Source: Klebsiella phage EI. Taken from it: a stretch of 64,000 bases of DNA. Each line of letters begins with the position of its first letter. The first letter of the stretch is position 1. The notes under the pieces were generated by a model, which ran no database searches, was not told the DNA's origin, and saw only the letters and a program-made list of their open reading frames with translations. Location of the stretch: sequence record MN106245.1; one strand, given 5' to 3'. Of this stretch, positions 286 through 49,012 are shown piece by piece. Position numbers and translations under genes: made by a program.

Positions 286-525
286 ATCTCACTAGATGAA
301 ACCCATGCGCCTTCAACCGTTTTACCGTTTTCGTCAAGGTCTACATCATAGCACTGGCAATAGTATTCAAGACCGTAGTCTTCAGCACTAGTACCTTTAG
401 GGTAATATGTGCGGCCGTTACCATATTCACCTGTACTAAATGATACACCCATTTCGTCAGCGATAGCTTCTGCTTCAGCTTCGATCTGTTCAGTCAGGCC
501 CATGACAGCCTTAATAGCTTCTCGT
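279..525 (-). CDS. C-terminal part of a small hypothetical protein; its true N-terminus is at 1294-1401 and the two parts are separated by an artefactual insert
   Basis: 85-aa ORF whose apparent N-terminus (MC..) is read out of adapter sequence; 52-bp segment 474-525 is repeated at 1294-1345. Confidence 0.4.
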
Positions 526-526
526 A

Positions 527-595
527 AAGAGCACACGTCTGAACTCCAGTCACGAGTGGATATCTCGTATGCCGTCTTCTGCTTGAAAAAAAAAA
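527..595. other. Illumina TruSeq indexed adapter (AAGAGCACACGTCTGAACTCCAGTCAC-GAGTGGAT-ATCTCGTATGCCGTCTTCTGCTTG, index 23-like) followed by A10: sequencing/assembly contamination
   Basis: exact match to the well-known adapter sequence read directly in the window; poly(A) run 586-595. Confidence 0.9.
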
Positions 596-1293
596 GAATT
601 TAAATATTTCGAGGATATTTGCATATCCATAGAGGACATATATAAAACAAGAGAAACATATACACCGTTCTATGATGATAGAGCTGATTATAATACTAAT
701 TCAAAATCGTATTATGATTATGTTTCAAATCTATCAAAACTGATTGAAGTATTGGCACGTCGTATTTGGGAATATGACGGTGAATTAAAAAAACGTTTCA
801 AAAATTGGGACGATTTAATGAAAAAATTTCCAGATGACGCTAAAGAATTATTTAGAGGATGGTTAAACGACGGTACGATTGATAAAATCATTCATGACGA
901 GTTTACAAAATATTCTGCTGGACTAACTTCAGCTTTTGCTGTATTTAAAATTGCTGAAATGAAACAAATGAATGATTTTAAAGCAGAAGTTAAAGACTTA
1001 ATTAAAGATATTGACCGTTTCGTTAATGGGTTTGAATTAAATGAGCTTGAACCAAAGTTTGTGATGGGCTTTGGTGGTATTCGCAACGCAGTTAACCAAT
1101 CTATTAATATTGATAAAGAAACAAATCATATTTATACAACACAATCAGACTCACAATCTCCAGAGGGTTTTTGGATAAATAAATTAACCCCTAGCGGTGA
1201 CTTACTTTCAAGTATGCGTATAGTACAAGGTGGCCACGGTACAACAGTAGGTTTAGAAAGACAATCAAACGGTGAAATGAAAATACCATTTGT
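596..1293 (+). other. foreign low-GC fragment (partial ORF 752-1293 of unknown function) joined to the adapter; likely a chimeric read, not phage sequence
   Basis: abrupt drop in GC and change in codon usage relative to flanks; bounded by adapter on one side and the 52-bp duplicated junction (1294-1345) on the other; ORF 752-1357 reads through the junction. Confidence 0.6.
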
Positions 1294-35590: not shown

Positions 35591-37171
35591 TTGGAGAAAG
35601 TAATGAATTTCAACATTCTAAGTTTATTCGCTCCGTGGGAAAAACACGATGAGTCCGAATATAAACGACAAATTAGAGACGATTTAGAATCCATTACCGG
35701 ACCCAAATTCGATGATGGAGCTCATGAAGTAGAAACTAATGAGCAAGATGCCCCGTATAACGCGTTTAACCAAATGATGTTTGGTACTCAGTTGCCGGGA
35801 ATGAAAACTACTCGTGAGCTTATTGACACTTACCGTAGTTTGATGAACAACTATGAAGTAGATAACGCAGTCCAGGATATTATTTCAGATTCCATCGTTT
35901 ACGAAGATGGCCACGATGTAGTATCTTTAAATCTCGACTCTACCAACTTTAGTGCAAATATAAAAGAACGAATGATGGACGAATTCAAAGAAATTTTGAA
36001 CTGTCTTGATTTTGAAAGAAAAGGTAGTGACCATTTCCGCCGTTGGTATGTAGACTCGCGCATCTTCTTCCATAAAATTATCGATCTTAAGCGCCCTAGA
36101 GAGGGTATCAAAGAGCTTCGTCGTTTGGATCCACGTAACCTTCAGTATGTTCGTGAACTAATCACAAAAGAAGAAGCCGGTGTTAAAGTCGTTAAAGGCT
36201 ATAAAGAATACTTTATCTACGATACAGCTAACGAAAGCTACTGCGTAAATAACAAAGTTTATTCTGCCCACACTAAGATTAAAATTCCGCGGTCAGCTAT
36301 TACGTATGCTCATTCAGGTTTAGTTGATTGCTGCGGTAAAAGCATTATCGGTTATCTTCATCGTGCAGTTAAGCCTGCTAACCAGCTTAAACTCTTAGAA
36401 GATGCGTTAGTAATTTACCGTATCACACGTGCACCGGACCGCCGTATCTTTTATATTGATACCGGGAATATGCCTTCTCGTAAGGCGACAGCACATATGC
36501 AGCATATTATGAACACAATGAAAAATCGTGTTGTGTATGACGCTTCTACCGGTAAAATTAAAAACCAACAACACAATATGTCTATGACTGAAGACTATTG
36601 GTTGCAACGACGTGATGGTAAAGCAGTAACAGAAGTTGATACCTTACCGGGTGCCACTAATATGAGTGACATGGATGACGTACGTTATTTCCGTGCAGCT
36701 CTTTATATGGCTCTTCGTGTTCCGTTATCTCGTATGCCGTCTTCTGCTTGAAAAAAAAAAGTGCAGTTCGATGCTGGAACCGGTATCACTCGCGAAGAAT
36801 TAGATTTCCGTAAATTTATCCGAGACCTTCAACATAAGTTTGAAGAAATTATGCTTGATCCTCTGAAAACCAATCTTCTTTTGAAGAAAGTTATTACAGA
36901 AGATGAGTGGAATAAAGAGATAAATAATATTAAAGTTGTGTTCCACCAAGACTCATACTTCACAGAAATGAAGGATGCAGAAGTGATGGAACGTAGAATC
37001 AATATGCTAACCATGGCTGAACCGTTTATTGGGAAATACATTTCTCACCAATATGCCATGAAAACTTTCTTGCAGATGTCTGATGAACAGATTGATCAAG
37101 AAGCTAAGCAAATTGAATTAGAGTCTAAAGAGGCTCGTTTCCAAGACCCAGAAAATGTAGAGGACTTCTAA
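35591..37171 (+). CDS. 20: gp20 portal vertex protein (one gene; the reading frame is interrupted at 36749 by a stop introduced from adapter/poly(A) sequence)
   Basis: ORFs 35591-36751 (386 aa) and 36761-37171 (136 aa) are in the same frame and total 522 aa (T4 gp20 524); the junction contains ATCTCGTATGCCGTCTTCTGCTTG + A10. Confidence 0.85.
36727..36760. other. Illumina adapter 3' end (ATCTCGTATGCCGTCTTCTGCTTG) plus A10 embedded in gene 20: consensus corruption
   Basis: the same adapter/poly(A) signature as at 562-595. Confidence 0.85.
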
Positions 37172-37375
37172 ATGGAAGAATTAATGGAAGCAATTAAGGC
37201 TAACGACCTCGTTGCAGTACGTAAAGCCGTGGCTCCACTGCTGCAAGAACGGACGTCTAGTTTAATTGAAGAGCTTAAAGTCAAAATTGCAAGCTCAGTC
37301 ATGATCGAAGGCGAAGAACCTGAAGAAGATTCGGAGGATGACGCCGATGACGACGATGATGAGGACGACGAATAA
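37172..37375 (+). CDS. 67: gp67 prohead core protein (acidic C-terminus)
   Basis: 67 aa ending [20 protein letters not shown]; synteny. Confidence 0.7.
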
Positions 37376-47512: not shown

Positions 47513-49012
47513 GTGGACATCAAATTAAAATTTCATGATTTTAGTCACGTTCTGGTTGAATGCGATGAAGGCATCTTCTATGAACTAAGAGACTTTTTCT
47601 CCTTCGAAGCAGAAGGCTATAAGTTTAATCCAAAATTTCGTTATGGACAGTGGGACGGGCGTATTCGTCTATTAGGTTATGACAGATTACTCCCCTTTGG
47701 ACTGGTGAACCAGGTACAGAAATTCGCCAACAACATGGGATATAAAGTTCATGCCGACCCTATGATTTTTGAAAAAGAAGAAATCACTCAAGAATCTTTT
47801 GATAAATGGCTCGATTCTAAAGAAATCTATTCTGGATTGACTAAGATTACACCTCATTGGTACCAGAAAGAAGCCGTGTTTAAGGGTCTTAAAGAAAGAC
47901 GTGCTCTGTTGAATTTACCTACATCGGCAGGTAAATCATTGATTCAGGCGCTCCTGAGTCGTTATTACGTAGAGAACTACGAAGGTAAAATTCTGATAAT
48001 TGTTCCTACTACCGCCCTTGTCGACCAAATGATCGATGACTTCTGTGATTATCGCCTGTTCAAAAGAGACAATATGCTTGGTATCAGAAGTGGTACTAAG
48101 AAAGATTCTTCTGCAGTGGTTTATGTTAGTACTTGGCAGACTGCTATTAAACAACCTAAAGAATGGTTCAGCCAGTTTGGTCTTATGATGAATGATGAAT
48201 GCCATCTTGCGACAGGTAAATCTATCTCTACCATTATCGCCGGGTTAAATAACTGTATGTTCAAATTCGGACTTTCCGGTTCTTTGAAAGACGGCAAAGC
48301 TAATTTGATGCAGTACCAAGGTCTGTTTGGTGATATCTTTAAACCGGTATCAACTTCACAGTTGATGGAAGAAGGCGCTGTTACTGAACTTAAAATTAAC
48401 GCTATCAGACTTCGGTATCCAGATAACATTACTGTTGCTTTGAAAGGTAAAACTTACCAAGAAGAGATTAAATATATCACTTCAGTTAAACGCCGTAATA
48501 AATGGATTGCAAATCTGGCTGTTAAATTAGCTAATAAAAACCAAAACGCCTTCGTGATGTTCAAGAACATCAGCCATGGCAAAGAATTATTCCAGATGAT
48601 TAAAGACCTTGGACACGACAAAATATTCTATGTATCTGGTGAAATTGATACAGATACTCGTACTGCTCTTAAAAAGATTGCAGAAAACGAAGCCGGAATT
48701 ATTGTTGTCGCATCGTACGGCGTATTCTCTACCGGAATCAGTATTAAGAATCTACACCATGTTATTTTAGCGCACGGTGTTAAATCAAAGATTATCGTAC
48801 TTCAGACTATCGGTCGAGTACTTCGTAAGCATGGCTCTAAAGATGTAGCAACGGTTTGGGACATCATCGATGACTGCGGTGTTAAACCTAAATCTGCCAA
48901 TGCCAAAAAGACTTACACTCATATTAACTATTTGCTCAAACATGGCTTAGAACGTATCCAGCGTTATGCTGATGAGAAATTCGATTACGTCATGAAACTT
49001 GTCGAACTCTAA
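47513..49012 (+). CDS. uvsW: UvsW RNA-DNA / DNA helicase (GTG start)
   Basis: 499 aa; MDIKLKFHDFSHV...LNLPTSAGKS (Walker A)...DECH (DExH); near-collinear with T4 UvsW. Confidence 0.9.
   Translation: MDIKLKFHDFSHVLVECDEGIFYELRDFFSFEAEGYKFNPKFRYGQWDGRIRLLGYDRLLPFGLVNQVQKFANNMGYKVHADPMIFEKEEITQESFDKWLDSKEIYSGLTKITPHWYQKEAVFKGLKERRALLNLPTSAGKSLIQALLSRYYVENYEGKILIIVPTTALVDQMIDDFCDYRLFKRDNMLGIRSGTKKDSSAVVYVSTWQTAIKQPKEWFSQFGLMMNDECHLATGKSISTIIAGLNNCMFKFGLSGSLKDGKANLMQYQGLFGDIFKPVSTSQLMEEGAVTELKINAIRLRYPDNITVALKGKTYQEEIKYITSVKRRNKWIANLAVKLANKNQNAFVMFKNISHGKELFQMIKDLGHDKIFYVSGEIDTDTRTALKKIAENEAGIIVVASYGVFSTGISIKNLHHVILAHGVKSKIIVLQTIGRVLRKHGSKDVATVWDIIDDCGVKPKSANAKKTYTHINYLLKHGLERIQRYADEKFDYVMKLVEL

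Follow-up and report, generated by a model that had tools for sequence, protein, structure and literature searches.

The portal gene and its interruption

The window, by which we mean the whole 64-kb stretch of Klebsiella phage EI DNA analysed here, carries a gene for a portal protein homologous to gp20 of phage T4. Its head-gene neighbourhood is conserved, as judged from the ORFs, their Pfam labels and the syntenic genes: genes for tail sheath and tail tube lie upstream, and those for gp67, gp68, prohead protease, scaffold protein and major capsid protein follow. As deposited, the gene does not encode a single uninterrupted polypeptide of ~520 amino acids (aa), since a TGA splits it into two ORFs, 35591-36751 and 36761-37171, which share one frame. 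The frame and the stop at 36749 are as the initial annotation had described them, but the start it had used, TTG 35591, is not the true one. In relatives, a 522-aa portal is annotated at the homologous 1569 nucleotides (nt), and the homologous position places the start of the EI gene at ATG 35603, giving fragments of 382 and 136 aa. The coordinates of all features are collected in Table 1.

Table 1. Features of the portal region and of the second adapter-bearing site in the window
Feature	Coordinates	Strand	Remark
Portal gene, T4 gp20 homologue	35603..37171	+	1569 nt, 522 aa plus stop after repair of the block
N-terminal portal fragment, judged spurious	35603..36751	+	382 aa, then the TGA judged artefactual; QEM42387.1
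Native 13-mer ATCTCGTATGCCG, codons L-S-R-M-P	36727..36739	+	present in all intact relatives
Corrupted block, TCTTCTGCTTG followed by A10	36740..36760	+	replaces native GACCTTAAYAATCAAGGNGGN; gap-free alignment to relatives
In-frame stop TGA, judged artefactual	36749..36751	+	made by cTTG + A at the junction of adapter and A-run
C-terminal portal fragment, judged spurious	36761..37171	+	GTG start, 136 aa; QEM42388.1
Chimera of adapter and foreign DNA, independent library artefact	526..1291	+	absent from Marfa and kv_tblp2
A	526	+	
TruSeq index-adapter stem without GATCGG	527-553	+	
Index GAGTGGAT	554-561	+	
P7 end	562-585	+	
A10	586-595	+	
Staphylococcus podophage DNA, 690 nt	596-1285	+	then about 6 nt

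When the two fragments were compared with the Pfam profile Portal_T4 (PF07230; gathering score cutoff, 22.9), the N-terminal fragment matched profile positions 2-307 of 433 (E = 7e-140, 467 bits) and the C-terminal fragment positions 313-433 (E = 3.5e-44, 151.7 bits). From the profile positions matched, the two ORFs are contiguous halves of one Portal_T4 domain. The orthologous portal of HMGUkp2, a close relative, matched the T4 gp20 chains in PDB 6UZC and 3JA7 over residues 1-520 (E = 1e-274). When the corrupted block was exchanged for the 21 nt of a relative, the EI gene was free of internal stops and encoded 522 aa, and its product was collinear with T4 gp20 and identical to the HMGUkp2 portal at 519 of the 522 residues. 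Both the total of 522 aa and the likeness to T4 gp20 that had been proposed were thus borne out.

The deposited proteins QEM42387.1 and QEM42388.1 are string-identical to the two fragments in the window. Both are named 'portal vertex protein [Klebsiella phage EI]', are encoded on a contig of 170,423 bp and belong to one 29-member protein cluster. The annotation of two portal fragments, against which the initial annotation had warned, is exactly what GenBank lists for EI as separate CDSs, and the public record already carries this wrong two-CDS portal.

Inspection of the interrupting sequence showed that 36727-36750, ATCTCGTATGCCGTCTTCTGCTTG, is identical to the end of the Illumina P7 adapter (24 of 24 positions, no mismatch) and that it is followed by a run of ten A residues (A10) at 36751-36760. 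The P7 24-mer occurs as two exact copies in the window (562-585 and 36727-36750) and was absent from 100 dinucleotide-preserving shuffles, with up to three mismatches allowed, which agrees with the earlier identification of an adapter end and poly(A) at this place. Only two A/T runs of at least 9 nt are found in the window, each immediately after a P7 end. A search of the window for TruSeq universal adapter, P5 and Nextera sequences added nothing to the two P7-bearing sites, and AGATCGGAAGAGC, with up to two mismatches, occurred there at chance level. Published trimming lists include P7 followed by A10 as read-through.

The stretch 36727-36760 had been described as P7 end plus poly(A), and the replaced native sequence had been put at 27-30 nt. 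Its initial 13 nt, ATCTCGTATGCCG, however, are native. They coincide with the start of the P7 adapter end and are perfectly complementary to the 3′-terminal 13 nt of the P7 oligonucleotide used in PCR and on the flow cell. The foreign part is therefore limited to the remaining 21 nt, that is, exactly seven codons, D380-G386 (native DLNNQGG). The view that native sequence was replaced, not inserted, was correct: the window, Marfa, HMGUkp2, Biddle_MM4 and AmPh_EK29 could be aligned with no gaps and no change of length. Intact relatives carry at this site ...TTATCTCGTATGCCG, GACCTTAAYAATCAAGGNGGN and GTGCAG... in succession, and the block-bearing form within 36600-36900 is TCTTCTGCTTGAAAAAAAAAA. 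The EI gene differs from that of HMGUkp2 at 43 nucleotides, 18 of them in the 21-nt block and 25 in the other 1548 nt (P ~7e-30).

In the window with the block repaired, the ATCTCGTATGCCG site is the single longest perfect anchor for the P7 3′ end (13 nt; the next best has 9 nt), and anchors of such length are expected about 0.005 times per 170-kb genome. No P5 3′ anchor of at least 9 nt was found in the repaired window.

The second adapter-bearing site, at 526-1291, is flanked by a duplication of ~54-63 nt of native sequence and has a GC content of 31.7%, against 40.8% for the window. Its index, GAGTGGAT, is presumably TruSeq index AD023. In the EI record, a hypothetical gene is broken by these roughly 760 nt of adapter and Staphylococcus phage DNA, accompanied by a short duplication.

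The site in related phages and in other records

Marfa (MN044033.1; RefSeq NC_048798.1; IMG/VR UViG_2974546015), the closest relative of EI (bioRxiv 10.64898/2026.01.22.701196), has the same portal site overwritten after the same 13-nt seed. The two portal genes are identical in the block and differ at 37 positions (2.4%) outside it, and the A-run is A11 in Marfa but A10 followed by the native G in EI. Marfa and the window share 92-97% nucleotide identity (best match in the phage collection, 97.7%), and gp11 alone is identical between them. The feature tables consulted for Marfa list no portal CDS row at locus tags 181/182, whereas EI has two CDSs. The Marfa library was prepared with TruSeq Nano and sequenced by MiSeq 2x250, and the reads (SRR8869231) were quality-trimmed with FASTX and assembled by SPAdes 3.5.0 with defaults (PMC6639630).

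Two further places were considered as candidate artefacts and rejected. At Marfa_196, the second locus labelled 'no CDS', both phages have an intact uvsW-like ORF of 499 aa. The segment 43515-44092 of the window, which does not align to Marfa, matches other Marfaviruses and represents natural variation.

The native GACCTTAAYAATCAAGGNGGN is kept in 21 of the 23 Marfavirus-like records and in five Logan contigs, with the 522-aa portal intact and the DLNNQGG motif present. A pattern specific to the block was found in IMG/VR in Marfa only, and it had no match in metagenome or genome contigs. Among Logan assemblies, the contig SRR8869231_4, built from the reads of Marfa itself, has as its first base the one immediately to the right of the block, the native G, where the GenBank sequence of Marfa has an eleventh A. 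Two other short contigs, from SRR15197222 and SRR25491956, likewise start inside the ~40-nt site, and the five longer contigs pass through it. The left-hand contig of SRR8869231 was not found among the 10 places listed; a further similar place is grouped under MN044033 and may be this contig. Look-ups with gp67 of the window and with the N-terminal portal fragment gave no match.

A P7 end followed by an A-run was found in 69 of 50,697 phage records, and two arrangements could be distinguished. In the first, the P7 end comes after a complete adapter stem and an index, as in G4507 gp5, the Tomato DNA polymerase, SPFM13 and positions 526-595 of the window; this is ordinary read-through chimerism. 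In the second, native sequence passes straight into the P7 end; EI and Marfa belong here, together with Proteus phage Saba, Rhizobium phage Palo and 11 Vibrio phages.

The 11 Vibrio records (OZ196032 and 10 more, from phages such as D173 and D65) carry the P7 tail and A8 to A10 or more, strictly in register. Their native site, ATCTCGGATGCCGTC, matches the P7 end at 14 of 15 positions, and at the mismatched position the affected records carry the T of the oligonucleotide. The 3′ extent of the block differs by sample, being A8 in D65 and A10 with a stray A in D173. Seven near-identical relatives are clean at the site, and affected records and clean relatives are all 52,228 bp long. Palo (MT708544) aligns to RHEph02 without a gap across its block, which lies inside the terminase gene. 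In Saba the block is inside a distal tail protein gene, and no relative at the nucleotide level was present in the phage collection for a comparison of register.

Origin of the block

From these results we conclude, with a probability of about 95%, that the P7 and A10 block in the EI portal gene is an artefact of the sequencing library or of assembly and not biology, as the initial annotation had held; the in-register overwrite and the intact state of the 21 relatives and five Logan contigs speak for this reading over a truly split gene. Further library-derived sequence elsewhere in this assembly (526-1291) supports it as well. With regard to a genuinely split gene or a pseudogene, the interrupting sequence was found to be a synthetic oligonucleotide, common only to Marfa, a phage from the same laboratory and pipeline. 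The false TGA and the two false CDSs arise because the block overwrites the 21 nt after the native 13-mer. That the portal is intact in the living phage is almost certain, and the real EI must encode 522 aa with approximately DLNNQGG at residues 380-386.

These residues align to Q382-G387 of T4 gp20, within the tunnel loop, which comprises aa 374-398 in T4 (PMC4493910), and deletion of residues 377-388 of T4 gp20 results in non-infectious virions (PMC4493910). EI is a plaque-forming lytic isolate (bioRxiv 10.64898/2026.01.22.701196). Plaque formation, taken together with the essential nature of the loop in T4, supports an intact portal in EI.

As to how the block arose, we lean towards mispriming by the P7 oligonucleotide followed by sequencing from mixed clusters. 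Mispriming would occur at the native 13-mer in library PCR and/or, especially, in bridge amplification, and would produce truncated template strands ending in P7 and the T10 surface linker. The A10 we take to be a copy of this T10 linker of the flow-cell oligonucleotide. Read 1 from mixed clusters would then consist of native sequence, the P7 tail and A10, and when the truncated strands were exhausted, base calls would revert to the full-length strands at the same cycle, hence in register. As indexing needs full-length strands, assignment to the sample would be confined to mixed clusters. If the reads were quality-trimmed but not adapter-trimmed, SPAdes 3.5.0 would keep the chimeric path. At the junction of A10 and Staphylococcus DNA (595/596), template exhausted after A10 may have let the signal switch to an unrelated co-sequenced library fragment.

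SPAdes with its defaults performs no mapping-based polishing and, with k-mers longer than 13 nt, the reads must span both junctions; we infer that the junctions of the block are present within the reads themselves. For the assembly of Marfa by SPAdes, only 'default parameters' are given (PMC6639630). Construction of the junctions from a match of 13-14 nt by BayesHammer k-mer correction or by a graph of k of at least 21 was rejected by reasoning, because the Hamming distances are too large and no k-mer is shared at the right junction.

One consequence of mispriming speaks against it. Chimeric reads, being read 1 of one fragment orientation, should make up no more than about a quarter to a half of the reads over the site, and why the assembler should prefer the chimeric path is then not obvious. 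A cofactor in the pipeline, namely the lack of adapter trimming and an old assembler, is also needed, since clean assemblies exist for 21 relatives whose P7-like site is the same or nearly so, and this cofactor is documented for Marfa and EI only.

A purely computational origin, in which adapter read-through or dimer reads are recruited to the P7-like 13-mer and out-vote the true reads over 21 columns, would account for the register, as a majority consensus taken per column is in register by nature. The common length of the affected and clean Vibrio records suggests reference-guided consensus calling, and the 3′ extent of the block differs between samples (A8, A10 and A11), as such an origin would allow. 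We nevertheless regard it as doubtful. A match of 13-14 nt is not long enough for common aligners or graphs of k of at least 21 to seed on, and the Logan k-mer assembly of the Marfa reads is interrupted precisely where the block ends on the right, an argument for the junction from A10 to native sequence being in the reads themselves. In addition, Marfa was assembled de novo by SPAdes 3.5.0 with defaults, and no mapping-based polishing is described (PMC6639630).

It is very improbable that the block in EI was inherited through assembly or polishing against a corrupted Marfa reference and copied where the true reads remained unaligned. The shared laboratory, the close relationship and the identical position are what such copying would give, but the edges of the block differ (A10 then G in EI, A11 in Marfa), as do the flanks, with 37 differences in the gene. 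EI also has its own chimera of TruSeq adapter and Staphylococcus DNA, which is absent from Marfa and typical of de novo assembly, and the processing stated for EI is FastQC and assembly by SPAdes 3.5.0 (bioRxiv 10.64898/2026.01.22.701196). A real 21-nt substitution, resulting in a two-polypeptide portal, stop-codon readthrough or a pseudogene complemented in trans, can be dismissed as next to impossible, for its presence in two deposited records is all that favours it, while the exact synthetic oligonucleotide with its A10 linker signature, the overwriting of unrelated genes of Vibrio, Rhizobium and Proteus phages by the same string, the intact site in 21 relatives and five Logan contigs, the essential portal with a tunnel loop needed for infectivity in T4 (PMC4493910), and the plaque-forming lytic nature of both EI and Marfa all oppose it.

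Returning to mispriming and mixed clusters, we give an even chance to the broader proposal that these sites belong to a predictable, sequence-determined class of Illumina artefact, in which sites complementary to approximately the last 13-15 nt of P7 are overwritten in register. In this class, the P7 tail and up to ten A residues may arrive by mispriming on the flow cell or in PCR, through mixed-template clusters.

Consequences and comparison with known systems

The EI portal is of the ordinary T4 type and presents no new biology; the value of the result is curatorial and methodological. The false portal CDSs of EI and the missing row for Marfa, the exemplar of Marfavirus (NC_048798), affect analyses of core genes, pangenomes and taxonomy, and also models trained on these records. 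If the artefact class is real, it preserves length and often frame and lacks stem and index, so that it may escape routine checks, and such blocks may sit in annotated genes of deposited and RefSeq genomes, among them EI, Marfa, the 11 Vibrio phages, Palo and Saba. The in-register form is insidious, because in Palo, Saba and the 11 Vibrio phages it amounts to wrong amino acids within annotated CDSs. A screen based on sequence only would flag such sites by a P7 end with an A-run, together with a native P7 3′ anchor of at least 12 nt.

Compared with ordinary read-through contamination, the EI portal site has in common the exact P7 end followed by exactly ten A residues. Ordinary P7 read-through, however, lies at contig ends or after the full adapter stem and index, whereas at the portal site there is neither stem nor index, the native gene enters the P7 end through the 13-nt identity, and native sequence returns in register.

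Marfa resembles EI in laboratory, library kit and assembler and is a distinct phage. The Vibrio phages and Palo resemble EI in the native P7-like site, in the in-register overwrite by the P7 tail and A8 to A10, and in having clean near-identical relatives. They differ in that unrelated genes are concerned, and the Vibrio set comes from another laboratory. In the Vibrio phages the block is hidden in an annotated CDS, being free of stops on the coding (minus) strand, while the block in EI splits the CDS.

With T4, the gene order is shared: gp18 sheath, gp19 tube, gp20, gp67, gp68, gp21 protease, gp22 and gp23. The EI portal is collinear with T4 gp20 (PDB 3JA7 and 6UZC; PF07230) over about 520 residues. 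The difference is that the deposited EI gene is broken inside the tunnel loop, where T4 gp20 has Q-DQQGG and the native Marfavirus loop has DLNNQGG.

The portal site in Marfa and in Logan contigs

The same portal overwrite, with the P7 tail followed by A11, was found in the deposited genome of Klebsiella phage Marfa, a near relative of EI (comparison stretch L006, 39163-39197, corresponding to MN044033.1 99162-99196), and it is present too in NC_048798.1 and IMGVR_UViG_2974546015_000001. The genome that carries it is the exemplar of Marfavirus marfa. In the Marfa listing, CPT_Marfa_181 and 182 have no CDS rows. Locus tag 196 of the same genome (L009, 10870-12629, corresponding to MN044033.1 110870-112629) has a listed RBS and likewise lacks its CDS row; here an adapter cause was ruled out. 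The 499-aa uvsW-like ORF with a GTG start is intact both in Marfa and at window 47513-49012, and the missing row is probably an annotation choice.

We also considered the four short Logan contigs whose left end lies no more than 3 kb upstream of gp68. Three of them, SRR15197222_33790, SRR8869231_4 (from the Marfa reads) and SRR25491956_54510, begin within the P7-like portal site of approximately 40 nt, and therefore assemblies of independent Illumina data sets appear to break repeatedly at this site.

The neighbouring gene, encoding a gp67-like prohead core protein (window 37172-37375), is 67 aa long; in Marfa and the Logan relatives its length is 84-90 aa. An indel of ~57 nt at window ~37346-37353, within an acidic, D/E-rich C-terminal repeat, accounts for this. 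Either the length varies naturally or the repeat may have collapsed in the error-prone EI assembly.

A chimeric insert in the EI assembly

The EI assembly also contains a chimeric insert at window 526-1291, its upstream native sequence ending at 525. The foreign DNA that follows the adapter series (GC 31.7%) matches the minor tail protein gene of Staphylococcus podophages (Rosenblumvirus, e.g. SA1-CTA1), and about 6 unassigned nt separate it from the resumed native sequence, which repeats ~54-63 nt from window 463-525. The insert breaks a minus-strand hypothetical gene, a homologue of kv_tblp2 CMFFIOCD_00130 and Marfa_129, and is missing from both of these compared genomes.

Adapter-derived and adjoining foreign sequence in the EI window and in other phage records
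Feature	Location	Context
Single A	window 526	first base after native sequence
TruSeq index-adapter stem, without initial GATCGG	window 527-553	
Index GAGTGGAT	window 554-561	
P7 end	window 562-585	
A10	window 586-595	
Staphylococcus podophage-like DNA, 690 nt	after A10 of the 526-1291 insert	97% identity to minor tail protein gene
Full Nextera adapter + index + P7 end + A-run	L010, MK327946.1 (G4507)	within genome
Full Nextera adapter + index + P7 end + A-run	L013, MT584805.1 (Tomato)	within genome
Full Nextera adapter + index + P7 end + A-run	L015, LR535910.1 (SPFM13)	within genome
P7 end + A8-A10, in-register overwrite	L014 1201-1234 = OZ196032.1 30016-30049 (Vibrio phage)	inside minus-strand 'hypothetical protein' CDS
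P7 end + A-run	L012 1201-1232, MT708544.1 (Rhizobium phage Palo)	inside large terminase CDS QOE32112.1
P7 end + A-run	L011 1201-1234, MN062188.1 (Proteus phage Saba)	inside distal tail protein CDS QEG09425.1

Adapter sequence in other phage records

The P7 end with an A-run occurred in 69 of 50,697 phage records, in many of them at a contig end. Among the genomes with a full adapter, G4507 and Tomato each list two CDSs for the gene that it interrupts (gp5 baseplate hub/lysozyme and DNA polymerase, respectively), and in Tomato the adapter is also adjoined by N's.

Palo and Saba are CPT phages, and neither site has an adapter stem upstream. The alignment of Palo with RHEph02 was gap-free; for Saba, no nucleotide relatives were found for comparison. 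Approximately 7-11 residues are probably wrong in the deposited Palo terminase and Saba distal tail protein.

The Vibrio phage overwrite is shared by ten more records (D57 g1, D198, D193, D190, D65, D59, D195, D150, D199 and D194), and seven near-identical relatives, including D68 and 219E41.2, are without it. Every OZ record is 52,228 bp long, and the native Vibrio site agrees with the P7 end at 14 of 15 positions.
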